Source of the DNA: a virus | Length of the DNA stretch: 64,000 nt | IMG/VR virus record: IMGVR_UViG_3300045988_015843 | Reading direction: 5' to 3' (one strand) | Part shown: piece after piece, positions 1,565-21,622 of the stretch | Layout of the letters: each line of letters begins with the position of its first letter | How positions within the stretch are numbered: position 1 is the first letter of the stretch | Notes under the pieces: model-generated | Seen by the model: the letters and a program-made list of their open reading frames with translations, nothing else | Told to the model about the DNA's origin: nothing | Database searches by the model: none | Translations under genes and position numbers: made by a program

Positions 1565-1969
1565 ATGACAAAGAAATTAGAAGTGATTGAACCGTTCTTC
1601 GGACTTGAACTTGGTGATGTTATGAATCTCTCTGATGACGAAAAGTCTTATGTTGCAGAGTATAATTCTGCATACAAGGAGAATGACGATGATGATTCTT
1701 CTGTAAAGGCTACCTATTCGTCCAAGTGCTCTATCTCTGTCGATTATGCAAAAGAGCTTATTGACGAGGGCATGCTTAAGGAGCTCATTGATAAATCAGA
1801 GCCGTTTATAAATGTGTTTGATGAGATCGATTCATTGATTGAGAAGTATACGTATGACCTGAACAAGGTTGATACACAGGATATGCCTGAGTGTATGAAG
1901 GTCGAACAACGTACAGTGATGCTTAATCTCATCAAAGTTCTTAACTATTTAAAGGGTCTTAAGAAGTAA
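1565..1969 (+). CDS. Hypothetical acidic protein (134 aa), early block
   Basis: Intact ORF ending in TAA with no in-frame TAG. It is the first gene after the divergent intergenic region. Confidence 0.6.
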   Translation: MTKKLEVIEPFFGLELGDVMNLSDDEKSYVAEYNSAYKENDDDDSSVKATYSSKCSISVDYAKELIDEGMLKELIDKSEPFINVFDEIDSLIEKYTYDLNKVDTQDMPECMKVEQRTVMLNLIKVLNYLKGLKK

Positions 1970-2385
1970 TGCAAGAGAAGATTAATCAGAAACCTTTAGC
2001 TGAGGATGTAAGTAATAAGATCAAATATGAGTTCTTTGACAGCTTTTTAGTAAAGCCGCTTACACCAGTAAAGGTCAAGAAGGAATTCAGTACACCGATT
2101 GCGACAGATAAGCCTAAGGCTGATAAGAACGGAATCGAGGCAACTGATTATGATAAAGTAAAGAAAGAAGTTAAAGAGGTTGATTCAGACTATTTAACAG
2201 GTATTGTACTTAAGGTTCCATACAGATATACTAAATGGATGGGTAATGAGAAGAGTTATGATCTTCCTCCGATACATGTTGGAGATACGATTTTCTATAA
2301 AGCCAGACACTTTGAGTACTTCGATCTTGTTAAAGACTCTCATCTAGTACGACAATTTGACATTATCGGAAAGGTCCATGATTGA
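1969..2385 (+). CDS. Hypothetical protein, possibly a GroES/gp31-like co-chaperonin fold
   Basis: Intact ORF. The pattern FLVKPL..VKVKKE ... TGIVL ... HVGDTIFY ... DIIGKV follows the GroES layout (IKPL..RV.VK / GGIVL / VGD.V.F / DILA). This is motif-level resemblance only. Confidence 0.35.
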   Translation: MQEKINQKPLAEDVSNKIKYEFFDSFLVKPLTPVKVKKEFSTPIATDKPKADKNGIEATDYDKVKKEVKEVDSDYLTGIVLKVPYRYTKWMGNEKSYDLPPIHVGDTIFYKARHFEYFDLVKDSHLVRQFDIIGKVHD

Positions 2386-2587
2386 TGTTAATAGTTTGAG
2401 CAATCAAATATCTAAAGAACTCAATATTGATAAAAACATTGTCAATGATGTTATACACCAGGTATTTGATTGTACAGCAACGATTATGAAAGACCCGAAT
2501 GATCAAAGAGATATATTGTTTGCTAAGTTATTTAAATTTAAATTAAAACCAAGATTTAAACATGAAAACGATTGCAGCGACGTATAA
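2378..2587 (+). CDS. Hypothetical small protein (69 aa from ATG 2378)
   Basis: Taken from the track ORF 2357..2587. ATG 2378 forms an ATGATTGA overlap with the stop of the upstream gene. No TAG. Confidence 0.45.
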   Translation: MIDVNSLSNQISKELNIDKNIVNDVIHQVFDCTATIMKDPNDQRDILFAKLFKFKLKPRFKHENDCSDV

Positions 2588-2891
2588 TTCAGATGTACTT
2601 ATTGTCGATACAGAAACCGCTAATATCGAACCGCTTGATGTACAAAGGAATGCGTGCAACAGAGTATACATGGCTCCTGAAGATATGCATTTCAAGTTCA
2701 TAGATCGCGACAGGAGTGTTGAAGAGTTCGATGTTAAAGCTGGCGATATTATACTTGCGTTTTGGGATACAGATTTTCCGCACAAGTATATAAAGATAAC
2801 ATCTGACGAGTGGAAAGAAAACCTCGATAACTATAATAAACGAATGAAAGAACTTAAAACAATTAACGATGAAGTCAATGAAGCCTGTTAA
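2562..2891 (+). CDS. Hypothetical protein (109 aa)
   Basis: Intact ORF, TAA stop, no TAG. Confidence 0.5.
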   Translation: MKTIAATYNSDVLIVDTETANIEPLDVQRNACNRVYMAPEDMHFKFIDRDRSVEEFDVKAGDIILAFWDTDFPHKYIKITSDEWKENLDNYNKRMKELKTINDEVNEAC

Positions 2892-3231
2892 GAAATATGT
2901 GATCGTAGATCTTACAAACGTTGAGAGCCCCAGTGATGTATATGCAGCTTTTGTAGAGGCTAAGTGTGGTGTAGAGCCTATCACTAAAGAGGAGATGTTC
3001 AACTACGCTATGCACGTCACAGAGCTGATGAATTCAAACATCGTCAAGTCATGCGCTTATCTAGTAGATTATATTGATGCACTGATTGATACAATTGAGA
3101 GTGTTTATGATAATGATGATTCTGATGACGCTGAGAATGCCGTAAAGAAGCGAGAGGGTGAGGAGAATGAGGTTGAGAAGAAGCCTAATATCTTCAAGCG
3201 TTTCTGGAACTGGATTACACGTAAGAAATAA
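2869..3231 (+). CDS. Hypothetical acidic protein (120 aa)
   Basis: Intact ORF, TAA stop, no TAG. Confidence 0.5.
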   Translation: MKSMKPVKKYVIVDLTNVESPSDVYAAFVEAKCGVEPITKEEMFNYAMHVTELMNSNIVKSCAYLVDYIDALIDTIESVYDNDDSDDAENAVKKREGEENEVEKKPNIFKRFWNWITRKK

Positions 3232-3278
3232 ATAGTTGGTTACTAAAAACTATCTGCAGTGACACACAACACTGCAAT

Positions 3279-3370
3279 GCGGGAGTAGCTTATGAGGTAG
3301 AGCAGTGTGAAGTCTGGAATAATATCAGATGAGATCCTCATGGAAGCAGGTTCGAGTCCTGCCCCTGCGC
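3279..3370 (+). tRNA. Atypical tRNA-like gene with a type II (long variable arm) layout; anticodon not assignable by eye
   Basis: Elements that fit a type II tRNA:
- T arm GCAGG-TTCGAGT-CCTGC (3346-3362)
- D arm GCTT-ATGAGGTA-GAGC (3288-3303)
- acceptor 5' TGCGGGA(G) against 3' CCCTGCG, 6 of 7 pairs
- hairpin TCTGG-AATAATA-TCAGA (3313-3329)
- variable-arm hairpin TGAG-ATC-CTCA (3330-3340)
Problems: 8 extra nt (3305-3312) lie between the D and anticodon arms, and the 7-nt loop lacks U33. Read conventionally the anticodon would be UAA (Leu). It could be a degenerate or unusual tRNA. Confidence 0.45.
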
Positions 3371-3383
3371 AAAAAACTACAAT

Positions 3384-3602
3384 ATGCGGCTAAAAGAATC
3401 TAATAGACCAAAACATTTGTTGTACGCTATTCCTGCAGCATTTGTTGGTACGATATTATTCAGTACAGGTCTAGCGTTTGGAATGGAGTTTAAAGACAAA
3501 CAATGGGGAGGTAAGTTCGATTGGCTTGATATAGCTGCTACAGAAATAGGTGGTTTAATCGGACAAGCACTTCAAATAGGAGTGATTTCATTATTTGTTT
3601 AA
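3384..3602 (+). CDS. Small membrane protein (72 aa, two hydrophobic segments)
   Basis: Intact ORF. Hydrophobic stretches: LLYAIPAAFVGTILFSTGLAF and IGGLIGQALQIGVISLFV. Confidence 0.5.
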   Translation: MRLKESNRPKHLLYAIPAAFVGTILFSTGLAFGMEFKDKQWGGKFDWLDIAATEIGGLIGQALQIGVISLFV

Positions 3603-3606
3603 TTAA

Positions 3607-3631
3607 TTAACCTCCTTAAGAAAGAGGTTAA
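3607..3631 (+). terminator. Perfect 8-bp hairpin between the membrane-protein gene and the tRNA 5' half
   Basis: TTAACCTC-CTTAAGAAA-GAGGTTAA. There is no downstream T-run, so it may be a processing or attenuating structure rather than a terminator. Confidence 0.3.
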
Positions 3632-3669
3632 CACTGCCCTATGGTGTAGCGATTAGCACAAGAGGCTCT

Positions 3670-4648
3670 TTTATCCAATGAATAATTGAATATATGGAAA
3701 ATAAAATATATAAGCTCTCAGACGAACAGTTTGTTGAGCTGCTCAAGAATAGTTCGACTATATCTGAAGTGTTATTTAAATTAGGTTATAGTGTAAAGGG
3801 TAATTCTTGGGGGTTTGCTAAAGTTAAACAAAGAATGTCTGATTTAAATTTAGACGGAAGTATATTTAAAGGTAAATCTCCAATTACGAAATATGGTACT
3901 TTACACAAAGTAAATGCTTCAGATATATTAAAACCTAATTGTAAACATGCTCGTTCTGTTTTAAGACGATATGTCATAAAAAATAATCTAATCCCATATC
4001 GATGTGCGATTTGCGGATGTGTTGAATGGCAAGGTCGTACATTAAGCTTAGAGCTTGATCATATAAACGGAATCAACAACGATAATCGTATAGAAAATCT
4101 ACGATTTCTATGTCCGAATTGTCATAGTCAGACAACTACTTATGGTAGTAGAAATCAACAAAGAAATGATTCTGAATATGAAATTACAGACGATCTTAGA
4201 AATTTAGTTGAAGCTGAGTATCAAAAACGTCGTAATATAAAACAAGTTTCTTCAGCACTTGGTGTTCGTAGACATGTTGTAAACAGGATTGTTAGCGAAA
4301 GCGGTTTGAAAAAATCTAATCAAAAATATGTGATTCGATACGATGAGAACTGGAACGAAATTGCACGATATGGTTCTTTGATAGAGACTGCAAAGCAACT
4401 TATTCTCAACAACGAAGTTAAAACAAAACGAATTAAAACATGTACTCGTACGATCATGTACAATAAGGATAATTTTTGGTTGAACAGTCATTGGAAAATA
4501 TTGGATGGTAGCGGGATAATAAATAATCCGCTATTAGAATCTTCTCTAATTGACTCGGAAGACAATGTTGACGAGGCGCAAGCGAAAGCAGCGTGACAGA
4601 CTGAACGAGAAGACTGGTCTTAGGACTGGATGCAACAGTCGATTTATG
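3670..4648 (+). mobile_element. 979-nt intervening sequence in the anticodon loop of the suppressor tRNA, carrying an HNH homing-endonuclease ORF (group I intron-like; ribozyme core not verified)
   Basis: The 5' exon ends in U (3669) and the intervening sequence ends in G (4648), as at group I splice sites. No other junction giving a 7-nt loop satisfies both rules. The 3' flank has a GNRA-capped hairpin (AAGC-GAAA-GC, about 4578-4590) and ACUG...CAGU pairings (4600-03 / 4636-39). Only 24 nt precede the ORF and 52 nt follow it, so any catalytic core would have to overlap the coding sequence. Confidence 0.4.
3694..4596 (+). CDS. HNH homing endonuclease (300 aa)
   Basis: The motif CAICGC...LELDHINGINNDNRIENLRFLCPNCHSQ matches H-N-H with flanking Cys pairs. 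TGA stop, no in-frame TAG. It lies entirely inside the tRNA intervening sequence. Confidence 0.9.
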   Translation: MENKIYKLSDEQFVELLKNSSTISEVLFKLGYSVKGNSWGFAKVKQRMSDLNLDGSIFKGKSPITKYGTLHKVNASDILKPNCKHARSVLRRYVIKNNLIPYRCAICGCVEWQGRTLSLELDHINGINNDNRIENLRFLCPNCHSQTTTYGSRNQQRNDSEYEITDDLRNLVEAEYQKRRNIKQVSSALGVRRHVVNRIVSESGLKKSNQKYVIRYDENWNEIARYGSLIETAKQLILNNEVKTKRIKTCTRTIMYNKDNFWLNSHWKILDGSGIINNPLLESSLIDSEDNVDEAQAKAA

Positions 4649-4700
4649 AACCCTCCTGGTCCGGGTTTGACTCCTGGTAGGGCTACTAAAATATAATAAG

Positions 4701-5264
4701 ATGGAAATTAAATTCAAGAAACTTTCTCATAAGGCTGTAATGCCTTCAAAAGCACATAAGACAGATGCTGGTTTTGATCTAACTACTACGGGTATAACGA
4801 CAGAGTTGAATGAGTGTGGTCAGTTGGTGATCGTATATCATACAGATCTTGCATTAGAGATTCCTGAAGGATACTTTGCTCTGGTGATGCCAAGATCATC
4901 TATTGCAAAGAAGTCATTACGTCTTACGAATAGTTGTGGTGTGATCGATTCAGGCTATCGTGGTGAAATACTTGGTAAATTTATCGCAACTACAGATGTT
5001 GTTCCTGCCGTATACAAGGTTGATGATAAATTTGCTCAGCTGGTGATCTTGCCTGTTCCTGATGTAGAGTTTGTTGAGTCTGATAATTTTTCAGAATCTG
5101 ATCGAGCTGATGGTGGTTACGGATCTTCTGATAAGGCACAGACTGCTGTAGACTCTGATACTAATACATCTGGCAACGACGAAAATATTTCAGTGCGAAG
5201 TGCACGACCGACAGATTGGCAGTCTGCAGTAACTGAGGACAATCAGTGCGAGTCTGCAGCATAA
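4701..5264 (+). CDS. dut: dUTP diphosphatase (dUTPase) with an acidic/Ser-rich C-terminal extension
   Basis: Motifs: AGFDL, PRSSIAKK, GVIDSGYRGEI. Intact ORF with no TAG. Confidence 0.85.
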   Translation: MEIKFKKLSHKAVMPSKAHKTDAGFDLTTTGITTELNECGQLVIVYHTDLALEIPEGYFALVMPRSSIAKKSLRLTNSCGVIDSGYRGEILGKFIATTDVVPAVYKVDDKFAQLVILPVPDVEFVESDNFSESDRADGGYGSSDKAQTAVDSDTNTSGNDENISVRSARPTDWQSAVTEDNQCESAA

Positions 5265-5292: not shown

Positions 5293-5367
5293 GGAAGTTT
5301 AGCTCAGTTGGTTTAGAGCGTCTGCCTTACAAGCAGAAGGTCGATGGTTCGAATCCACCAACTTCCA
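5293..5367 (+). tRNA. tRNA-Val (anticodon UAC)
   Basis: Cloverleaf elements:
- acceptor GGAAGTT/AACTTCC, 7 of 7
- D arm GCTC-AGTTGGTTTA-GAGC
- anticodon arm TCTGC-CTTACAA-GCAGA
- variable AGGTC
- T arm GATGG-TTCGAAT-CCACC, one mismatch
- discriminator A
Total length 75 nt. Confidence 0.85.
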
Positions 5368-5403
5368 CCTTCATTTTTTTCATACTGACTTTTTGAATTT
5401 GCG

Positions 5404-8541: not shown

Positions 8542-9030
8542 ATGGAAACTCTTGATAAGATATTTAAAGATTATGGATACGATAAACAAACATCGGTAAT
8601 TCATAAAGCGATCACAAACATATCTGAATATTTACAGAAGGTTTTGGATAAAGACCAGTATTGTAAAGTGATCAAAGATACATATTGTACGTTTGTTGGT
8701 GGACATTACAATGAACCGTTTGCTGATGATCAGGTATCTAAGATGTATTACGAAAAAGATGGGTCTAAATACACAGGACCATTTTTGAACAAGAATCTCG
8801 TACTAAATAAGTATAAAGAGATACGTGGCGTAATACCTGATTATAATGAGTGGGATTATTATGTAACTGTACAGATGATATATTCAGATAACTATAATCT
8901 CATACATGAGTGGTTTCCGAACATATCAGAAGATGAGTTCAATCAAAAGATTTATCAACTTGCTACCAACTGGTTGAACGATAAGGATAACCCGTTTGGT
9001 AATAGTAAAACATGGTGTTATTTTAACTAA
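8542..9030 (+). CDS. Hypothetical protein (162 aa)
   Basis: Track ORF 8521..9030 trimmed to the first ATG. No TAG. Confidence 0.5.
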   Translation: METLDKIFKDYGYDKQTSVIHKAITNISEYLQKVLDKDQYCKVIKDTYCTFVGGHYNEPFADDQVSKMYYEKDGSKYTGPFLNKNLVLNKYKEIRGVIPDYNEWDYYVTVQMIYSDNYNLIHEWFPNISEDEFNQKIYQLATNWLNDKDNPFGNSKTWCYFN

Positions 9031-9038
9031 TATAAATA

Positions 9039-10592
9039 ATGAAATTTTTAGATCAATCAGGTTTAGTAATTGTTCAATCTTGGATCAACAATAGCTTTGC
9101 AAAAGTTGATCAAGCGTTCGGTACTATAAGTTATGCAGGAAACATATCCGGTATAACTGTTAGTCAAGTCAGTACAACAACAAACGGTAGTCCTTCAACT
9201 GTTTATTACGACACAACTGGTGGACAATTTGTATTGAAAGCTGGTAACAACGTATATTACAACAACTGGCCGAACAAATATGTATGGGTTGTTCCTGGCA
9301 TTAATGAGCCTTGGGGTTGTGTAATCTATAAAGATCTGAGCTTAAATAAGCTATATAAATATCTTCCCGAGGAAGGTAGTATGACAGCGTGTGACGTAAC
9401 AGATTATCCTGCAATGCGTCTTCGTGATCTGCTTGCTGATATTGAGATGTATATTGCTCAGAAAAGTATATATGCTCCGTCACAGCATACTCACTCTATT
9501 GCAAATGTTACTGGACTTCAGGCCAAGCTTGACACTATAAACAAGGGTTTGACCGTACTTGGACTTGATCAATGGGGTGCTGTTAAAGTAGATGGTGTTC
9601 TGACCAATTCTATTAATGCTGCACAAGGTGGTGTTGGAAATCCGACCGATATATATATTGCACAGTCTATCTCAAGTCCGTCTGGTACGATATCTGGAAT
9701 TGTTGGTAGGATTGGATCTGCATATTATACGACATGGAGTGGTACTAATGTACCAACCAATTTGTATATGAAGACAAATGGTAGTCCTTATTACAGCAAG
9801 TATTATTATACTATGGGTTCTAATGGTCTGCCAAACGCGGTATACAGATGGAACGGTCAGAAGTTTACGATCGATGAGGATTATTCAGATCATTCGATTT
9901 CTGATGGATTCGGCAAAGACCTTGAGGATGCAATACAGCCGGCATTGGATTATATTGATACAGTATCTGCTGAGTCGGTATCCAGAACAGATGCTGTTAC
10001 TCATAGTGCTATTAGCAGTACATCTAGCACAGTAAGATTAGCTTATGTACTTTCGTCAGCAAGTACACATGGTAATATTAAGAATGCTAGTGCTTCAGAG
10101 CTCGGCCTTGTCAATGGTGTAAGTTCATCAGGTACAGGTAATGTTGTAACAAGTATGTCAAAAGCTGCTAACTCAAGTAGTATTACATGGGAACGTAATT
10201 GGGTTGAGCCGTGGACAGCTAATGCTTATCATAAACAGGCATCTGCAACAGCTCGTATTTCAGCTACTGAAGGTGAGTTCTCGGTCCTTGACTTCAGATC
10301 AGGTTCAGGCATGTATCTTGGTTTTGCATCTCCGTATAGTTTGACTAACGGCATGAACCATCATTGGAGAGGTTTGATTATGAAGAAAGCTAATCAGCCT
10401 ATTAATATTGCAAAGCCTTCAATGCTCAAAACAGATTCTGTAATCCTGTGTAACCTTCCACAAACTCAGATTGTTAGTGGTACGAATTTCTATTTTGACG
10501 CATATACTACGACAAATACATCATCACTATCACATGATACTTTGGTACTAATACTGTATCCGGTTACAAACGTATTAGAGTTTTCAGCTTAA
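9039..10592 (+). CDS. Tail fibre / receptor-binding-like protein (517 aa), TAG-free
   Basis: Intact ORF. The N-terminus MKFLDQSGLVIVQSW parallels ORF 6720. Ser/Thr/Gly-rich. Confidence 0.5.
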   Translation: MKFLDQSGLVIVQSWINNSFAKVDQAFGTISYAGNISGITVSQVSTTTNGSPSTVYYDTTGGQFVLKAGNNVYYNNWPNKYVWVVPGINEPWGCVIYKDLSLNKLYKYLPEEGSMTACDVTDYPAMRLRDLLADIEMYIAQKSIYAPSQHTHSIANVTGLQAKLDTINKGLTVLGLDQWGAVKVDGVLTNSINAAQGGVGNPTDIYIAQSISSPSGTISGIVGRIGSAYYTTWSGTNVPTNLYMKTNGSPYYSKYYYTMGSNGLPNAVYRWNGQKFTIDEDYSDHSISDGFGKDLEDAIQPALDYIDTVSAESVSRTDAVTHSAISSTSSTVRLAYVLSSASTHGNIKNASASELGLVNGVSSSGTGNVVTSMSKAANSSSITWERNWVEPWTANAYHKQASATARISATEGEFSVLDFRSGSGMYLGFASPYSLTNGMNHHWRGLIMKKANQPINIAKPSMLKTDSVILCNLPQTQIVSGTNFYFDAYTTTNTSSLSHDTLVLILYPVTNVLEFSA

Positions 10593-10605
10593 TCAATAAC
10601 CAGCC

Positions 10606-11847
10606 ATGATAAACAATAAACTATTATATTATAAAACAAAGGATGGTTATGTTAAAGATGCGTCAAACATCTCTTCTGAATCAATAGTTTTCATCGAAGA
10701 TGATGGTACAATACGCACACATAACAAAACATTCGGACAGCCGTTGACGGCTGACGAGGACAACCTTACTGTGAAAAACAATGTGATTACAGTTAAGAAT
10801 CGTATATCGGATCATGGTCGTGGCTATGTTGTTCTCAAGAAAGACGATGATTTTGTATCATCTGTTGTAGACCAAAATACAACGTATGTTATCAAATATG
10901 ATTATGTACTAAATGAAGGTCTTAATCTACCTAAGGATGTAACCCTTAAGTTTGAAGGTGGCTCTCTTACAGGTGGTAGTATCGTTGGTCATGGAGCGTA
11001 TATAGACGCTCCAACTGATCATCAGATATTTAATAATGTACTTGTTGGAGGAAGCTTCTACAATCGTTACTTACCTATCGAATGGTTCGGGCTCCAGAGA
11101 GGTACAATAGTGGGTGTAAACTCATTTAATCTAAAAGGTACTAAATCTGTAGACAATCTTCCTCAAGATCCTGAAGAGTATGATGCATATGCCGTAGGTC
11201 ATGATGTATACGTATATTATAAGGACAGAGGTTGGATTAAGCATGAGAATATTATATCAAGCAAAGCTCTTGATATACAAGCATCACAACCTTCTGAGAG
11301 CATATCTATAACTAGTACGAGTATTGATTACGCTGTATCAGAAGATGGTCAGAATGCTCCAGCAACTGGATGGGCTAAAGAAATACCTACTATAACAATA
11401 ACACATCGATATGTATGGACTCGTACGATTGTGAATTATTCTGATGGTACGAATACAACATCTTATTCTGTAGCATACTCTGGTAAAGATGGTAAGAACG
11501 CTTCTGCACTCACTATAAAGGGTCGTGCTGGTAACCATTTTGCAACAGTAGATGATTTAAAGGCTAGCAATCCTCCTCAGATTTCAGGAACTGTTATATA
11601 TCTAGTCGATAAACCTTCTGCACACATTACAATAGTAAAGGATGGAAATGTATTAGCTGGTACTGATGAGCAGGTTAATGATGGTGATGCATACATTATA
11701 GCAACAGCTGATAATTCTGGTTCAACAAATGATGTTGTTTGGATTGCTACAACAAATGGTTGGATTGAGTACCACGGAGGTATCGGATCTGATTCTGAAG
11801 TAGATGTTATAACAGATAAAGACCTGTCTGATATGGGTATTAAATGA
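10606..11847 (+). CDS. Tail-associated structural protein (413 aa), TAG-free
   Basis: Intact ORF adjacent to the fibre genes. Function not recognised. Confidence 0.4.
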   Translation: MINNKLLYYKTKDGYVKDASNISSESIVFIEDDGTIRTHNKTFGQPLTADEDNLTVKNNVITVKNRISDHGRGYVVLKKDDDFVSSVVDQNTTYVIKYDYVLNEGLNLPKDVTLKFEGGSLTGGSIVGHGAYIDAPTDHQIFNNVLVGGSFYNRYLPIEWFGLQRGTIVGVNSFNLKGTKSVDNLPQDPEEYDAYAVGHDVYVYYKDRGWIKHENIISSKALDIQASQPSESISITSTSIDYAVSEDGQNAPATGWAKEIPTITITHRYVWTRTIVNYSDGTNTTSYSVAYSGKDGKNASALTIKGRAGNHFATVDDLKASNPPQISGTVIYLVDKPSAHITIVKDGNVLAGTDEQVNDGDAYIIATADNSGSTNDVVWIATTNGWIEYHGGIGSDSEVDVITDKDLSDMGIK

Positions 11848-12366: not shown

Positions 12367-14433
12367 ATGATTGATTTTAATAAGAAAATAGTTAACTCAG
12401 ATAAGTTTAGACAAGCTGCTTTATTCTTCGAAAAGAACGGATGTTATACGTTTGCTCCAGAAGGTACGACAGACTACTTCAATTATTGGAAACAAGAACA
12501 ACAAAGATGTTTAAATGGATACACAGCTCCTGATGGAGATTAGATAACTGGGTATCATTACTTTTATCTCAACTATAGTCCTATTATGAAGCTTGTTGAA
12601 ACAGAATACACAGATCGTAATGGAACTAAGAGAACTAGACGAGAGCGTTTGTTTAGATTTCCTGATTTTTGGGATTACGATTGGTTCTATTATAATGCTA
12701 TAGAACAGGCTGAAGATGAAGGTAAACATATGGTTGTACTTAAAGCTCGTGCTCGTGGATACTCATTCAAAGGTGCGTCTATGTTATGTAGAAACTATTT
12801 TCTTATTCCAAAATCAAAGAATTTTGCTGTTGCATCGGAACAAAAGTTTCTAACAGGTGATGGTTTGTTAACAAAAGCTTGGCAAATCATGGACTTCTTA
12901 GATAAGCACTCTGGATGGGCTAAACGAAGATTGAGAGCAACTTCTTTAGAACGTACATCTGGATTTAAGGTTAAAGATGAGATAACAGGTAAAGAGGTTG
13001 AAGATGGTTATCTATCTAGCGTAACAGGTATAACACTTAAGAATGATCCAGAACGTATTCGTGGTACTCGTGGTAGATTGTTCTTATGGGAGGAGTCTGG
13101 TAAATTTCCAGACATTAAACAAGCTTGGCAAATAGCAAGACCTTCTGTAGAAACAGATGACGGTGTTGCGTTCGGATTGATGATTGCATTTGGTACTGGC
13201 GGATCTGAGGGTGCAAACTTTGAAGGTTTGTCAGATATGTTTTATCATCCAGAAGGCTTTAATTGTTTAGACTTCGATAATATTTGGGATGAGGGTATGG
13301 CTGATAAGAAGTGTGGATTCTTTGTTCCAGCATGGTCTAATCTGCAATCAGATGAACATCCTGAATGTATGGATTCTGATGGTAATACGAATAGATCTGC
13401 ATCTGTATAGGTAATATTAGAACAAAGAAGAATCGTAAGAGATAGTCAGCCTGATGAAACTGTAACAGATAGATATATTGCAGAGCACCCCAACACACCT
13501 TAGGAAGCAATTCTTGAGGTTGGTAAAAACATATTTCCAAAAAAGCAATTACAAATGCAGCTTAACAAACTAAGGACGAACACGAAATTAGCTAATATGA
13601 AACATGTTGTTGACTTGGTTTGGGAAGGGGATGGTACTGTAAAAGCCATTGAAAAGAAGGGTGGTGATATAACACACTACCCACTAAAGAAAGGAGAGTA
13701 GCCAACAGGATCTGTTGTTATATACGAATATCCTGTTAAAGATCCTCCTTACGGATTATACATAGCTGGTCAGGACCCTTATGATCAAGATGGTTCTCTT
13801 ACAAATTCATTAGGATCTACGTTTATATATAAACGATTCTAGCCAGGAGAAGCTTGGTCAGATGTGATAGTTGCTGAATATAGTGGAAGACCTGATACAG
13901 CTGAAGAATATTATGAGAATGTTCGTAAGCTATTGACTATGTATAATGCGAAATTATTGTTCGAGAATGAACGTAAAGGTATATACCCGTACTTTACAAA
14001 TAAGCATTGTGATTATATGCTAGCAGACCAACCAGATAAGGTTATAAGTGAAATATTCAAAGACTCTAAAGTACAACGTAAGAAAGGTTGTCATATGACA
14101 AAACAAATTAGATCATATGCAGAGGGTCTTATAAAAGAATGGTTACTTGAAGAATATGAACCGGGTCATCCAAATCTCGAACGTATATATAGTGAGCCAT
14201 TGATAGAAGAGTTGTTGTTAGATGATGGTGTACGAAATGTAGACCGTGTAATAGCTCTATGTATGGTCATGCTATATAGAGAAGAATTATATCAAGTAAA
14301 GATTGCAGCAGCAAAAGAGTAGAATAAACAAATAGATTTCTTTGAAACGCCATTGTTTAGTAACCAATGGTTTGACGAAGATAGTTCGTACGATAATTAG
14401 TACGACAATAACATTCCGACATTTACGTTTTAA
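12367..14433 (+). CDS. terL: Terminase large subunit (688 aa), 7 in-frame TAG
   Basis: Frame 1 is open from ATG 12367 to TAA 14431. TAG occurs at 12541, 13408, 13501, 13699, 13840, 14323 and 14398. Motifs: ARARGYSFKG, LFLWEESGKF, GTGGSEG, HPNTP(Q)EA, AGQDPYDQDGS. Confidence 0.9.
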
Positions 14434-14435
14434 CA

Positions 14436-17400
14436 ATGATAAGAGTAGAAGATAATTTATATAATGCGAACTTTCCGCAACAGAAACTACCTCTAAAGAA
14501 AAAAGATGAGTAGTGGTAGCATGACTGCGTGAATTACATTATCGGAGAAGGTAATGTTGTATCTGGCGGAATGTAGAAGACTCGGTTTAGCGAACTTCAA
14601 ACATATTACGATCTATATAATAGTATCTTTGATGAAAAGGACTTTAAACGTATAACCAACCCGTTTAAAGTATCAGACGGATTTCCTGCTACACCACAAG
14701 ACTTCAACATAATTAGGCCTAAGGTAGACCTCCTTATAGGTGAAGAGACAAAGAGGCCGTTTAATTTCAGAGTTGTACGTACATCACAGGAGGCAACATC
14801 TGACTTAATGGATTAGGAGAAAGAAATGCTAATCCAATATATGATGAGTGCTATTATGGGCAGAATGAGTCCTGAAGAGCAACAATAGTTCCAACAACAA
14901 CTTTAGAGTGGTGAGATAATGCCGCCTGAAGAGATTGGAAAGTATATGCGTAGGGATTACAAAGATGTTATAGAAAACACAGCCTATCATTCTCTGATGT
15001 ATATACGCGAGAAGTGTGGTATAGATAACGAGTTTATCAAAGGTTGGAAAGACGGTTTGATAGCGGGACAAGAGGTATACTATGTTGGTGTACAAAATGG
15101 AGATCCTTACATGGAACGTGTGAATCCTGTATATTTTTCATTCGATCAGTCACCAGACCTTGAGTTTATAGAAGATGCGTCATGGTGTTGTAGAAAAATG
15201 AGACTCCCTGTAGCTGAAGTATACGACAGATATCATGATAAGTTGTCTGAGAAAGATTTAGACAAATTAAACGAGATGTTAACAGGTCGTCCATCAAATG
15301 ATCTTGGAGAAAAAGACCCTGTTGATAATTTCAATCATATACAAATGCATATATACGATAATCCTGTTTTTGATCAGAAGACAAGACATAACATTAATGT
15401 ATGGCATTGTTGTTGGAAATCGTTTAAGAAGATTAAGTATGTTACGTTTCAAGATGAAAACGGAGATGCTTAGATTGAAATCGTAGACGAATTCTATAAA
15501 CCTGTTGGAACAGAGATAGGTATTGATGAGGATTGGATTGTTGAAGTATGGGAAGGATATAGAGCCGGATCAGATTTGTATTTTGGTATACAACCGGTTG
15601 CTTATCAACATATAAGCATTGATCAACCAGATAGTCAGAAGTTACCTTATTGTGGTGCTATATATAGTAACACTAACAGTAAGCCAAGATCCCTTGTAAG
15701 CATCCTCAAGCCTTTGCAGTATATGTACATTGTATTGTGGTATAGACTTGAATTAGCAATAGCTAGGGATAAAGGTAAGGTTATCAATATGGATATTACG
15801 TAGATACCTAAATCTATGAATATTACACCAGATCGATGGATGCATTATTTATCAAGCGTTGGTGTAAACTTCATAAATCCTTATGAGTGCTTTGATCCAG
15901 ATACAGAGGTGTTGATGTACGACAGATCTGTTCGTAAGATTAAAGATATTCATATTGGTGATAAGGTACTTGGTCCAGATGGAACTCCACGTACTGTATT
16001 GGATGAGTGTGAGGGTATCGACAAGATGTATAGAATACACAGTGGCACAGGATGTGATGATTAGATTGTAAACAGTAGACATAAAATTTATTATACTGAA
16101 TATAATCACTTTAAAAAAACATACACTGACAAGTTGGCAACTCCATTGGAGTTGATGAAAGAGGATCTACATAAGTCGTATATAAAACAAAATCGATATT
16201 TGAAACGAGTACATCCTACTGACAATAATGTTTCTTCAAATTTACTATTAGATCCGTATTATCTTGGATTATGGTTGGGCGATGGTTTTACAAACAGTCC
16301 TGCAATAATAAACGAAGATATAGAGGTGATTAAGTGGTTGTCAGAATATGCCGAGTCTAATGGTATGACAACAACAATCCTTTCTGATAAAAACGTTCCT
16401 GTTATATATCTTAAAAATAAGGTGTATAATCATAAGAACCCAATAAAAGACACACTTCAATATTATGGAATCTTAAATCAAAAAGATATCCCAGATGATT
16501 ACCTACATGGTAGTGTTGAAGATAAACTACAGTTAATGGCAGGTCTTATTGATACTGATGGGCATTTTTCAAAGCGTGATCGCATTTATACATTTAGCCA
16601 ATGTGAATCTAGAAAACATATTGTAGACAAACTTGCTTTTATAGCAAGATCTTTAGGATTTAAATGTAGTCTACACATGTACAAAACCGCTGGTACAAAA
16701 CACATATGTGGTAATAAGAGCACATGTCAAAATACATACACGTTACGAATAATTGATGGATTGTACGATATTCCATGTAAAATTGCTCGTAAGAAACATC
16801 ATTGGGTTCAAAAGCGTACAAAACGAAGTTTGACAAATTTCAAGGTTTCGTACAGCCATATTGGAAAATACAAAGGTATCACTACAGATGGAGATCACTT
16901 CTTTGTGTTAAAAGACTTTACAGTAGTACATAACTGTCAATGGGGTATTCCTGGCAGAGAGGGTGGTAAACCAGCTACGTTTAATCAAATAACATCACTT
17001 GATCTTACGATGAGTAATGTTATTGCGGAGTATATTCAACTCATGGATAAGATTGAACAATTAGCTGGAACAATCACTGGTATCACAGAGCAACGTCAAG
17101 GAGCTATTAGCACATCAGAACTTGTTGGAAACGTAGAACGATCTGTATTACAATCATCTCATATCACAGAACCCTTGTTCTGGGTACACAACCAATGTAA
17201 GAAGCACGTGTTAACAATGCTTCTTAATACAGCAAAAGGTGTCTGGGAAGAGTCTGGTAAGAAAAAGCTTCAATACGTATTTGATAATGGAGAAAGAGCA
17301 TTCTTAGCAATAACAAAACAATTCTATTATGAAGATATGGATGTATTCGTTAGTGACACATCTAAGGATGCTGAGAACATAGCAAAACTTCAACAGCTTA

Positions 17401-17969
17401 TTCAACCTGCAATGCAAAATGGAGCAAGCTTGTTAGAAGCAGCAGAGGTTCTTACGAATGATAACTTTAACATTATCAAACAGAAGCTTAAAGATATGCA
17501 AGATCGTCAAGATCAACTTTAGCAGCAGCAACAAGAGGCTCAGCAGCAACAAGCAATGCAACTTCAGCAGATGCAGAATGAGGCTAAAGAGCAAGAACTC
17601 ATGCTTAAGGAAGCTGAAATGGATCTTCAGAGGTATAAGATTGATGCTGATAATCAAACCAAGATTGCTGTGGCTGAAATTAGCACATATAGAGGTACTG
17701 AGGATAAGGATATCAATATGAATGGTATTCCAGATCCGATGGAGATAGCTAAGGATGCTACACAGCAACGTAAGATAGATTCAGAAGCATATACTAAGCG
17801 TTATGAAGCTCGTCAGAAAAAGGAGATTGAAGATAAGAAGATCAGTCTTGCTAAAGAACAGATGAAACATGAAAGTGAACTTTAGAAGTAGAAAGACGAC
17901 GCTGCTATGTAGAGAGAAGAGCTTAAGGCTAAGACCGCATTGAAAAACAAAGTAGCTGGTGAACGATGA
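14436..17969 (+). CDS. Portal protein precursor (1177 aa including a 349-aa intein), about 14 in-frame TAG
   Basis: Frame 0 is open from ATG 14436 to TGA 17967. Track ORFs 14919, 15576, 15816, 16134 and 17556 are all in frame. The portal-like motif FNIIRPKVDLLIGEE is present. It lies directly downstream of terL. Confidence 0.8.
15888..16934 (+). mobile_element. Class 1 intein with a LAGLIDADG homing endonuclease, inserted in the portal gene
   Basis: The N-terminal block is CFDPDTEVLM after NPYE. The two dodecapeptide motifs are YYLGLWLGDGF and LMAGLIDTDGHF. The C-terminal block FTVVHN is followed by the +1 Cys (CQWGIPG). The length is 1047 nt, exactly 349 codons. It contains one in-frame TAG (16062). 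Confidence 0.85.
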
Positions 17970-18169: not shown

Positions 18170-18872
18170 TTACTTACCAGAATATAGAAAAGGCAAATCT
18201 AAAGTAAACCAAACATCTAAATAGTTTGTTGATAAAATGGGACCTCTGGTTTATGACAAGATGCATCAAATGGGTATCTACTCAGATAGAACGTTTGATT
18301 ATCTCATGCGTCAATTAGCATTTGAGTCAGCAAACGGAACATCGAATGTTGCGAGAAAATATAACAACTACGGTGGTGTTCGTGTACCAGGAAAGACACA
18401 ATATCAATCATATAAAAACGATTAGGCATTTGTTGATTACTGGCTCCCTATGATGAATCGTAAATATGCAAAAGCATTGAAGGCTCGTAATATTGATGAG
18501 TATGGCGCAGCATTGAAGAGTCTTGGTTATTATGAAGCTCCTGTGTTACAATATACATCAGGTTTAAAGAGTTCTACAAGCGTTGGATCTGCTGCTGCAG
18601 CTTATGCTACAAGTAGAAACAAGGCTAATAAACCAATGCCTATGCAGACATAGCCTGTATTAAAACCTGTAATAAATCTAATGCCTGATTATATGAAAAA
18701 TCAGACGCCTATTTGGCAACCAACATCTGATATTCAAGATGTCCCTGTACAGCAGGAACCTACACAACAGACATTATAGTTTACTTTACCTCCAATAGAG
18801 AATCTATATGCAAAATTGGTTAACGATCAGCCATGGATTCCTGGAGAAGTTCCAATGAATGGATTATTATAA
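18159..18872 (+). CDS. Glucosaminidase (FlgJ/LytD-like) peptidoglycan hydrolase located in the head gene block (237 aa), 4 in-frame TAG
   Basis: Frame 0 runs from ATG 18159 to TAA 18870. The motif QLAFESANGTSNVARKYNNYGGVR ... SLGYYEAP matches the E-S-G..S..A..NN.FGIK ... GYATDP pattern of the glucosaminidase domain. Confidence 0.65.
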
Positions 18873-18912
18873 ACAGTTATATTGAACTGAAATCAATAAC
18901 ATAAATATATTT

Positions 18913-20098: not shown

Positions 20099-21622
20099 AT
20101 GAATAACGGTTTGTTAAACAACCTTCAGCTTTATCGCGGACGTCGTTTCAGCGATCTTGTTGATGAGAATATGATTTCTAACGCATTGCTGACTAAGCCT
20201 CATGAGGTATCTGGTCTGCTTTCACTTGTCTTTGGTACCAAGGATGATGGTGTTTCTACAGCAATCGACTTGATTACCGGTGGTCTTGGTAAAACAATGA
20301 TCATTGAGAATCGTGAGTATGAGTGGTCTGTTATGATTGACGCTGATCACGCAGTAAATATTCGTTGGGCTAAGGCTAATGGTCAGGAGATTACTTCAGC
20401 TAATTTCGCTGATGCAACTGCTGGTCTTAACGGTGCTCCGATTTATATCGCACTTGAAGAGAAGTTCTTCGGTCCTGGTGCTATTCTTTCTTTTGACAAC
20501 TATAATTTCCAGGTTCGTGTAAGCGGTCAGCCTTACCAGGACGGTAGTGCTTGGGTATACGAGTGCTATGTTGTCGATGGTTTCTCTGGTTCTTACATTC
20601 CTGGTGAGTACTTGCTTCCTGGTCGTCAGGTTAGCCGCATGGCTTCTGCATACGAGGAGTACAGTGATGAGGAGGATATCATCAACTATCAGACCCCGTT
20701 TAAGATGCGTAATAACCTCATGACGCTTCGTCTTGGTTATGACATCACGGGTGATGCTTATAGCACGGTATTGGCTATTGCATTGAAGGATCCTGAGACT
20801 GGTAAGACATCTTATCTGTGGTCTGATTATCAGTATTGGCTCGCTCTTCGTGAGTGGAAGAGACGCGAGGAGAAGGCTCTTCTGTTTGGTAAGTCTAATC
20901 GTAACTCTGATGGTACGTATAACCTCAAGGGTTCTAATGGTCGTCCTGTTGCCGTATCAGCTGGTCTGTTCGAGCAGGTTGCTCCGGCTAATGTACGTTA
21001 TTACACGACTCTCACCGCTGAGTTGCTTGAGGATTATCTGTTTGATCTTTGCTACAATATGCTTGGTACTCAGGAGCGTAAGTTTATGGCTCTTACTGGA
21101 GAGATGGGTATCAGAGAGTTCGATCGTATTTTGAAGGAGAAGGTTGCTTCTTTCAATATGATTGATACGCACTTTGTAACTGGTTCTGGTCAGGATCTCG
21201 TTCTTGGTGGTCAGTTCACAACCTACAAGATGACTAACGGCATTGAGCTTACGCTTAAGCGTTGTGCAATGTTTGATAACATGGAGCTGTTCCGTCAGTT
21301 GCACCCGCTCACGGGTAAACCTCTGATGTCTTACACGTTCCTGTTTGTTGATCTTGGTAACCGTGATGGTCAGCCGAACATCGTTAAGGTTTGCCGTAAG
21401 GGTCGTGAGTTCGTACAGTGGTGCACTGGTGGTTCTGTAGTTCCTAGTGGCTATGCTAACAGCATCAATACGCTTCGTTCTAATAGCCGTGATGGTTATC
21501 AGGTTCACTTCCTCGGTGAGGAGGGCATTATGCTCCGTAACCCGCTGTCTTGCGGTATCCTGTATTGCGATGCTGAGGATTCTGAGCACACGAACAACGG
21601 TGGTATCAAGAAAGGTGCCTAA
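20099..21622 (+). CDS. Major capsid protein (507 aa), TAG-free
   Basis: Intact ORF. Codon usage is visibly richer in GC at third positions, as in highly expressed genes. It follows a scaffold-like gene and is followed by hairpins and a terminator. Size and position match crAss-like capsid proteins. No sequence motif was verified. Confidence 0.7.
   Translation: MNNGLLNNLQLYRGRRFSDLVDENMISNALLTKPHEVSGLLSLVFGTKDDGVSTAIDLITGGLGKTMIIENREYEWSVMIDADHAVNIRWAKANGQEITSANFADATAGLNGAPIYIALEEKFFGPGAILSFDNYNFQVRVSGQPYQDGSAWVYECYVVDGFSGSYIPGEYLLPGRQVSRMASAYEEYSDEEDIINYQTPFKMRNNLMTLRLGYDITGDAYSTVLAIALKDPETGKTSYLWSDYQYWLALREWKRREEKALLFGKSNRNSDGTYNLKGSNGRPVAVSAGLFEQVAPANVRYYTTLTAELLEDYLFDLCYNMLGTQERKFMALTGEMGIREFDRILKEKVASFNMIDTHFVTGSGQDLVLGGQFTTYKMTNGIELTLKRCAMFDNMELFRQLHPLTGKPLMSYTFLFVDLGNRDGQPNIVKVCRKGREFVQWCTGGSVVPSGYANSINTLRSNSRDGYQVHFLGEEGIMLRNPLSCGILYCDAEDSEHTNNGGIKKGA

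Follow-up and report, generated by a model that had tools for sequence, protein, structure and literature searches.

The 64,000-nucleotide (nt) virus sequence analyzed here, IMG/VR record IMGVR_UViG_3300045988_015843 (hereafter the window), carries a 1047-nt in-frame segment in its portal gene that is very probably a class-1 bifunctional intein of the PI-SceI/VMA1 type, hosted by a crAss-like phage in which TAG is recoded to glutamine. On translation, all 13 in-frame stops within 14436-17969 (+ strand) are TAG, and the TAG at 16062 is one of them. The precursor gene and its parts are as follows, lengths of products being given in amino acids (aa).

14436..17969, + strand: portal precursor gene, 1177 codons and then a TGA stop at 17967, with 13 in-frame TAG codons
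14436..15887, + strand: N-extein, 484 aa, C-terminal end ...VGVNFINPYE
15888..16934, + strand: the probable intein, 1047 nt and 349 aa, portal codons 485-833, a Hint domain split by a double-motif LAGLIDADG endonuclease domain (PI-SceI type)
16935..17969, + strand: C-extein, 344 aa plus the stop, beginning CQWGIPGREGGKPATFNQ

The junctions read NPYE / CFDPDTEVLM...TVVHN / CQWGIPG, and the residues expected of a splicing and homing element are found at these positions:

15888..15890, + strand: Cys1 codon TGC, the block A nucleophile, aligned with Cys1 of PI-SceI and invariant across three portal inteins
16068..16082, + strand: block B, VNSRH, residues 61-65 (Asn62...His65), with N62 and H65 invariant in portal inteins
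16263..16289, + strand: LAGLIDADG motif 1, LGLWLGDGF, in which Asp132 is the counterpart of PI-SceI Asp218
16533..16565, + strand: LAGLIDADG motif 2, LMAGLIDTDGH, in which Asp224 is the counterpart of PI-SceI Asp326
16929..16937, + strand: block G, His348-Asn349 (CAT AAC, 16929-16934), and then Cys+1 of the C-extein (TGT, 16935-16937), aligned with His453-Asn454-Cys455 of the VMA1 precursor

We take Asp218 and Asp326 to be the catalytic acidic residues of PI-SceI. Across 22 homologues of the segment, G127, W129, L130 and G131 of motif 1 are invariant and D132 is kept in at least 90%, G219, D222 and D224 of motif 2 are invariant in all 22, and H65 of block B is likewise kept in at least 90%. 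The C-terminal signature extends further still: in all 81 intein relatives examined, the last two residues are (H/K/M)N and the next one is C, S or T. Pfam matched the segment to Hom_end_hint (PF05203; E=1.5e-18, 68 bits with a cutoff of 32), with Cys1 falling on position 1 of the profile, and to Hom_end (PF05204; E=5.7e-9, 36.5 bits with a cutoff of 21.1). The best sequence match in the PDB was PI-SceI (E=2.5e-16), in an alignment that pairs Cys1, both aspartates, His-Asn and Cys+1. Chance resemblance could not account for these matches by a wide margin.

Structural comparison pointed to the same family. An AlphaFold model of intein residues 60-350, built with 23 homologues, had a predicted local distance difference test (pLDDT) score of 80 overall, above 90 across the endonuclease core and 50-65 in the C-terminal Hint strands; the N-terminal Hint part is covered by sequence profiles (Pfam). 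Foldseek of residues 60-350 returned PI-SceI first (E=2e-16, template modeling (TM) score 0.69), followed by the TliVMA intein and I-DmoI, with a probability of 1.00 for both PI-SceI and I-DmoI. In PI-SceI, the VMA1 intein of Saccharomyces cerevisiae (PDB 1VDE, 1LWS), a LAGLIDADG endonuclease with two motifs likewise interrupts the Hint domain, and the two elements share Cys1, the Asn-x-x-His block B, equivalents of Asp218 and Asp326, and His-Asn-Cys+1. However, they are only ~20-23% identical over the aligned structure, and the window intein is shorter (349 versus 454 aa). It lacks ~85 residues between the N-terminal Hint part and the endonuclease (residues 51-122 versus 51-208 in PI-SceI), so that the segment holding the DNA-recognition region of PI-SceI is shortened. 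The host genes also differ, being a phage portal in the window and a V-ATPase for PI-SceI, and the window intein contains a recoded TAG.

Joining 14436..15887 to 16935..17969 gives an 828-aa product that matches phrog_6547 'portal protein' as a single stretch over positions 5-822 of 827 (E=7e-161). The same product matches Pfam P22_portal (PF16510; 28.5 bits with a cutoff of 26.1) and the crAss001 gp20 portal (PDB 7QOG; E=3.5e-90, residues 6-795), the C-extein aligning with gp20 from about residue 493 on. Judged from these matches, the predicted extein product is a crAss-like (P22-type) portal protein. Its N-extein is 75% nt identical to the portal of crAssphage cr130_1, and that match breaks off exactly at gene base 1451-1452, the final base of the N-extein.

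Portals without the segment are common among close relatives. In an extein-only alignment scan, none of the best 80 IMG/VR portal relatives (826-829 aa) carried the insert. Two of the related sequences, which we designate by L and a number, are essentially the window's own phage: L003, a 97.9-kilobase (kb) contig, and L004 both lack exactly nt 15888-16934. When the intein was deleted from the window in silico and 8.5 kb were aligned, L003 was 98.6% and L004 98.2% nt identical, and the junction closed to the base. Taken separately, the N-extein and C-extein are 99.5% and 99.0% nt identical to L003. The existence of near-identical portals without the segment implies that it was inserted and is not native to the portal. 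The occupied junction in the window is ...CCTTATGAG / 1047 nt / TGTCAATGG..., the empty junction in L003 is ...CCTTATGAA / AATCAATGG..., and, written as a cleavage-target sequence, the empty site of L003 is ...AATCCTTATGAA / AATCAATGGGGTATTCC....

Within at most 120 nt on each side of the site, only three bases separate all occupied from all empty alleles (GAG/TGT versus GAA/AAT). The change at the -1 codon is synonymous (Glu in both), and the one at +1 replaces Asn by Cys. All occupied alleles carry Cys or Ser at +1. Among intein-free portals at 99% aa identity, +1 is Asn in clusters of 59 and 45 members and Ser in a cluster of 2, and more distant intein-free relatives have Glu, Thr, Ser or Asp. 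An empty allele with Cys at +1, the footprint that precise intein loss would leave, was not found among 159 proteins and 80 loci. These observations suggest that the +1 nucleophile travels with the intein and is not a conserved residue of the portal, and hence that, on homing, the +1 codon at least must be converted along with the intein.

The occupied site is itself polymorphic. The window's intein, allele A, was found at the same site in at least eight independent assemblies, comprising the window, L083 and L166-L171. The intein of L083, an IMG/VR contig, is 94% nt and 97% aa identical to the window's, and six ENA/Logan assemblies from different runs (L166-L171) have an identical set of 35 substitutions when compared with the window. 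Allele B (L084, L085 and L175) is a 353-aa intein at exactly the same site that is 63% nt and 60% aa identical to the window's, in exteins 95-98% nt identical to those of the window. The portal of L174 differs in local sequence (NPYE / C GWNIPG) and has a third allele (65% aa) at this site, and a 42%-identical intein with Ser at +1 sits at the same site in L176, a distant standard-code crassvirus.

Within one species, intein divergence thus exceeds extein divergence more than tenfold, which implies that the inteins have a history separate from that of their host genes, as homing predicts. Between the window and L083, the intein has accumulated 50 synonymous and 10 non-synonymous differences (ratio of non-synonymous to synonymous rates, dN/dS, of 0.04), and the endonuclease domain alone 20 and 6, respectively. 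By this measure, the intein is under strong purifying selection that acts on both of its domains. The flanks show divergence of another kind: the C-extein of L083 is 86% nt identical to the window and its N-extein 98.6%, and the differences of L003 and L004 from the window cluster 1500-1900 nt downstream of the intein site (~18390-18890, in the gene after the portal). Such mosaic divergence in L083, L003 and L004 points to frequent recombination around the portal gene.

One of the 13 TAG codons of the portal gene lies in the intein:

16062..16064, + strand: in-frame TAG, intein residue 59, read as Gln; CAA in allele B (L084/L085), Gln in cr118_1, and TAG in L083 and L174

We compared the 12 TAG columns of the exteins with relatives that have a standard codon there. 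Gln was the top residue in 8 of the 12, and pooled counts were 248 Gln versus 61 for Lys, the next commonest. On these counts, the window phage reads TAG as Gln. Other inteins of the family have TAG codons of their own. Allele B has one at residue 71, where the window intein has GAA, the L174 intein has five, and that of L090 has one. In addition, the human gut contig L219 (OZSH01000001, 97.8 kb) has a TerL intein of the same family with six in-frame TAG codons and Cys at +1, a further intein that is equilibrated to the TAG = Gln code. As to a depletion of TAG in the intein, TAG makes up 1 of its 8 Gln codons versus 12 of 71 in the exteins, frequencies that are indistinguishable at such small numbers. 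The initial annotation of the window had noted the in-frame TAG at 16062 and proposed either long residence of the intein in a recoded genome or movement among recoded phages. The codon is confirmed, and its states in relatives, together with the five TAG codons of L174, support an intein lineage that lives in and moves among TAG-recoded phages. Mobile elements have accordingly equilibrated to the TAG = Gln code.

The position of the insert within the portal can be approximated from crAss001 gp20, in which the inner stem helix spans residues 519-541 and the tunnel loop residues 550-563 (PMC10172136). The window insertion point aligns at ~Lys492/Glu493 of gp20, and comparison with the published helix coordinates places it between two stem helices, upstream of the inner stem helix. 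From portal topology, this location would belong to the clip region. The tunnel loop, also considered as the insertion place, was ruled out by the gp20 alignment and the coordinates in PMC10172136. A precursor that retained the insert at such a position, in a conserved stretch between stem helices, is unlikely to assemble into a portal, and portal assembly would accordingly depend on splicing.

We weighed the identification of the segment as an intein against two other origins. It might be a domesticated or native portal domain that is kept in the mature portal, or else a splicing-dead remnant. Large lineage-specific insertions do occur in some phage structural proteins, and relatives do not conserve a nucleophile at +1, as would suit such a domain. 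However, a native domain is ruled out by the near-identical portals that lack the segment with a base-precise junction, and Cys1, His65, His348, Asn349 and Cys+1 are all retained. Moreover, the pattern at +1, with Cys or Ser in all occupied alleles and Cys in no empty one, is sensible only if the residue serves splicing. We consider this origin highly improbable. The window is a metagenomic-style sequence, which might bring to mind an assembly chimera or sequencing artefact, to which we assign a negligible probability: recovery of the same in-frame insertion at the same base in at least eight independent assemblies, from different runs and with mostly synonymous differences, refutes an artefact. 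Several points do weigh against the intein as we describe it. NCBIfam gave no intein splice-region match, only weak ones to intein-containing radical-SAM models. The fold model is restricted to residues 60-350, the first 59 residues lying outside it, and placement in the clip rests on sequence alignment to gp20 and published helix coordinates, not on the structure of the window protein. Less typically for an intein, the +1 nucleophile lacks conservation in the extein, where relatives show Asn, Glu, Thr, Ser or Asp. Protein splicing and DNA cleavage are activities that we infer for the segment. The intein is nevertheless real and, judged from its sequence, probably active. The initial annotation had proposed a 349-codon intein at 15888-16934 with Cys1, two LAGLIDADG motifs, a terminal VVHN and Cys+1, interrupting the portal between NPYE and CQWGIPG. 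Pfam and PDB alignment bear this out to the base, the flanks read exactly so, and profile, PDB and fold searches (the last for residues 60-350) all bring the catalytic residues into register. The 828-aa join and the clean closure of the L003 and L004 junctions agree with it, as does the absence of the segment from the best 80 related portals, two of them at 98.2-98.6% nt identity.

Whether the intein still homes is a separate matter. The empty/occupied polymorphism and the excess of intein divergence indirectly support homing between portal alleles, which would require an endonuclease that cuts. It is also conceivable that the intein splices and its endonuclease no longer cuts, the element being kept by vertical descent and ordinary recombination late in the homing cycle. 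Alleles A and B and the empty site are found side by side and are of similar abundance, as expected once spreading stops, and ordinary mosaicism in the flanks is extensive, as exemplified by the two exteins of L083. Yet both LAGLIDADG motifs and the acidic residues are intact in alleles A, B and C and in cr118, which speaks against a dead endonuclease. The predominance of synonymous differences in the endonuclease domain suggests that it is still under selection, and transfer between lineages is required to account for inteins that diverge by 37% nt while their exteins differ by 2-3%. We regard loss of cutting as unlikely.

Related inteins (38-41% aa) interrupt the portal at two further points of the conserved stretch NPY(E/D)ExW(N/D)(I/V)PGREGGKP. 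The L089 intein is inserted after the Trp (W/C), 3 residues downstream of the window site, and those of cr118_1, L177 and L090 are inserted after GGK (GGK/S), 12 residues downstream. We placed the portal inteins in a neighbor-joining tree of 81 family members with 100 bootstraps, a simple distance analysis in which most members sit in P-loops of terminases and helicases. Bootstrap support was 85 for the site-a inteins, 86 for sites a and c together, 100 for site b, and 77 for all portal inteins. These values moderately support a single intein lineage that shifted between neighboring portal sites.

Translation of the precursor requires that UAG be read, and a candidate for the decoder was found in the window as a tRNA gene split within its anticodon:

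3635..3669, + strand: 5' half of the suppressor tRNA-Gln(CUA), ending ...GGCUCU, after anticodon nucleotide 35
3670..4648, + strand: insert in the tRNA anticodon, between nucleotides 35 and 36, 979 nt, with boundaries from alignment with intact tRNAs
3694-4596, + strand: HNH open reading frame (ORF) in the tRNA insert, 300 aa; Pfam HNH 21.9 bits (cutoff 21.4)
4649..4686, + strand: 3' half of the suppressor tRNA-Gln(CUA), from an in-silico join and alignment

Neither ARAGORN, its intron mode, nor Rfam found a tRNA(CUA) in the raw window, and it appeared after a brute-force in-silico splice. Apart from tRNA-Val(UAC) at 5293-5369, ARAGORN and Rfam reported only one tRNA-like sequence, at 3278-3370 and below threshold. 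Joining 3635-3669 to 4649-4686 yields a 73-nt tRNA with anticodon CUA, and this join is unique. The joined tRNA aligns without gaps to the intact tRNA-Gln genes of cr60_1 and cr53_1, both Suoliviridae, with an identical anticodon stem-loop, and ARAGORN reads both of those genes as anticodon CUA. The joined tRNA(CUA) is the predicted decoder of the TAG codons in the portal and intein. The HNH element that the initial annotation had placed in the suppressor tRNA is thus upheld as anatomy. Standard finders miss such a split tRNA(CUA), which may be why some recoded Suoliviridae seem to lack a suppressor tRNA.

The 979-nt insert follows U and ends in G, with only 24 nt before the ORF. Group I introns follow U and end in G. 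Rfam found no group I intron in 3200-4750 at E<=1. The insert may be spliced out of the tRNA, and its HNH protein may be active. The tRNA-like sequence at 3278-3370 is 93 nt long and scored 27.6 bits with the Rfam tRNA model, relative to a gathering score of 29; ARAGORN offers two readings of it, a tRNA whose anticodon has 4 bases or a tRNA-Leu(GAG) whose anticodon loop holds a 16-nt insert.

Drawing on established intein chemistry, we propose the following splicing pathway. The 13 UAG codons of the late portal mRNA would be read by the phage tRNA-Gln(CUA), giving a 1177-aa precursor. Cys1 would undergo an N-S acyl shift, after which Cys+1 would take over the N-extein by transesterification. 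Asn349, helped by His348, would then cyclise and release the intein, and an S-N shift would complete the 828-aa portal (...NPYE-CQWGIPG...). When a relative co-infects, the released LAGLIDADG domain, with Asp132 and Asp224, would be expected to cut the intein-free allele of that relative (CCTTATGAA / AATCAATGG). If the break were then repaired from the occupied allele, the intein would be copied along with the flanking GAG/TGT bases, among them the Cys+1 codon.

A more encompassing interpretation, which we put forward tentatively and do not hold to be probable, is that a single intein lineage colonised NPY(E/D)-x-x-W-x-(I/V)-PGREGGK-P, is engaged in a live homing cycle, and has made the chain of splicing and recoding a checkpoint. 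If so, insertion points 3 and 12 residues apart would make three in this stretch, and the intein would have brought its own +1 Cys or Ser each time without using a pre-existing nucleophile. The presence of the empty site, allele A and allele B (60% aa) in one species would represent a live homing cycle with competing allelic inteins, running in one of the most abundant groups of human and animal gut viruses. Portal maturation would then stand at the end of a chain in which the split suppressor tRNA is rejoined, UAG is read through, and the protein is spliced. This three-step chain could be a timing checkpoint for head assembly.

Inteins of crAss-like phages in the Delta group have been described for TerL (PMC7886860, PMC10136315). 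Yutin et al. 2021 (PMC7886860) reported a Delta-group TerL with two inteins and multiple TAG codons in both its extein and intein parts. The TerL inteins of Delta-group (Suoliviridae) phages, such as cMAG OBYQ01000140 (PMC7886860), come from the same phage family as the window intein and similarly combine an intein with TAG recoding in one late gene. They are 31-39% identical to the window intein and reside in the terminase, whereas the window intein is in the portal and the window's own TerL is intein-free. The portal inteins also form their own clade in the neighbor-joining tree (bootstrap 77, as above). We found no statement on crassvirus portal inteins in the texts on these inteins (PMC7886860, PMC10136315) or in the supplements searched.

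A portal intein can nonetheless be recognized in a named relative. The 1195-aa 'portal protein' of cr118_1 (NC_055872) contains an unannotated related intein (40% aa) in an orthologous portal and in the same conserved stretch. It differs from the window intein in its position 12 residues downstream (GGK/C...HN/SATF), in having Ser at +1, and in that its genome uses the standard code and its gene contains no TAG. The cr118_1 TerL (locus 1-2520) is annotated at more than 1050 aa, compared to 685-688 aa in cr130_1 and the window. This excess length suggests that it probably also carries an intein, in which case both packaging genes of cr118_1 would have one.

Outside of the crassviruses, portal proteins are among the intein hosts of mycobacteriophages and actinobacteriophages (Kelley et al. 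2016, PMC5050341; bioRxiv 10.1101/2025.01.02.630785), where portal inteins are sporadically distributed and polyphyletic (PMC5050341; 10.1101/2025.01.02.630785). Those systems involve an unrelated portal family, another host phylum and another genetic code, and we likened them to the window by their published descriptions. The window intein is therefore best described as an element of a thoroughly known kind at a new insertion site. What goes beyond routine is the empty/A/B polymorphism in one species, the three-site hotspot, and the dependency chain in which a split suppressor tRNA, UAG read-through and protein splicing follow one another. With empty, occupied and second divergent alleles in exteins only 1-3% apart, the locus offers a clear view, in nature, of how inteins behave in an uncultured gut phage lineage of high abundance, and existing metagenome time series could be used to follow the allele frequencies.

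There is also a practical consequence for annotation. Standard-code gene calling cuts the portal into approximately ten fragments, in which the intein pieces are labelled only Hint or Hom_end. The portal is a marker gene in Crassvirales phylogenies, and unrecognised inteins would consequently distort alignments.

The remainder of the window is consistent with its placement among these phages. We mapped its genes with only TAA and TGA as stops, which gave a co-linear gene set on the + strand. TerL (688 aa) occupies 12367-14433 and contains no intein, and the gene upstream of the portal stops at a TAA (14431-14433). The order of TerL, portal, further genes and major capsid protein is that of cr130_1 (Suoliviridae, Oafivirinae; from macaque faeces), which was the sole INPHARED record with a megablast match (75% nt). 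The window phage is a member of the Suoliviridae, the 'Delta group' of crAss-like phages, and cr130_1 is its nearest named relative.

TAG codons are unevenly spread along the window. Almost no in-frame TAG occurs in 1565-5264 and 8542-11847, and the dUTPase (4701-5264) and tRNA-Val(UAC) (5293-5369) lie in this left, TAG-poor part. Long ORFs from 12367 on mostly contain TAG; the 507-aa ORF at 20099-21622 is one of several long ORFs past 12367 that do not. Recoding restricted to part of the genome has been published for crAss-like phages, and the contrast between the TAG-poor left blocks and the TAG-bearing ORFs from 12367 on fits such confinement. Farther downstream, the frame at 39340-61137 stays open for 7265 codons when TAG is read through (52 in-frame TAG codons, TAA stop), and would encode a very large late protein.

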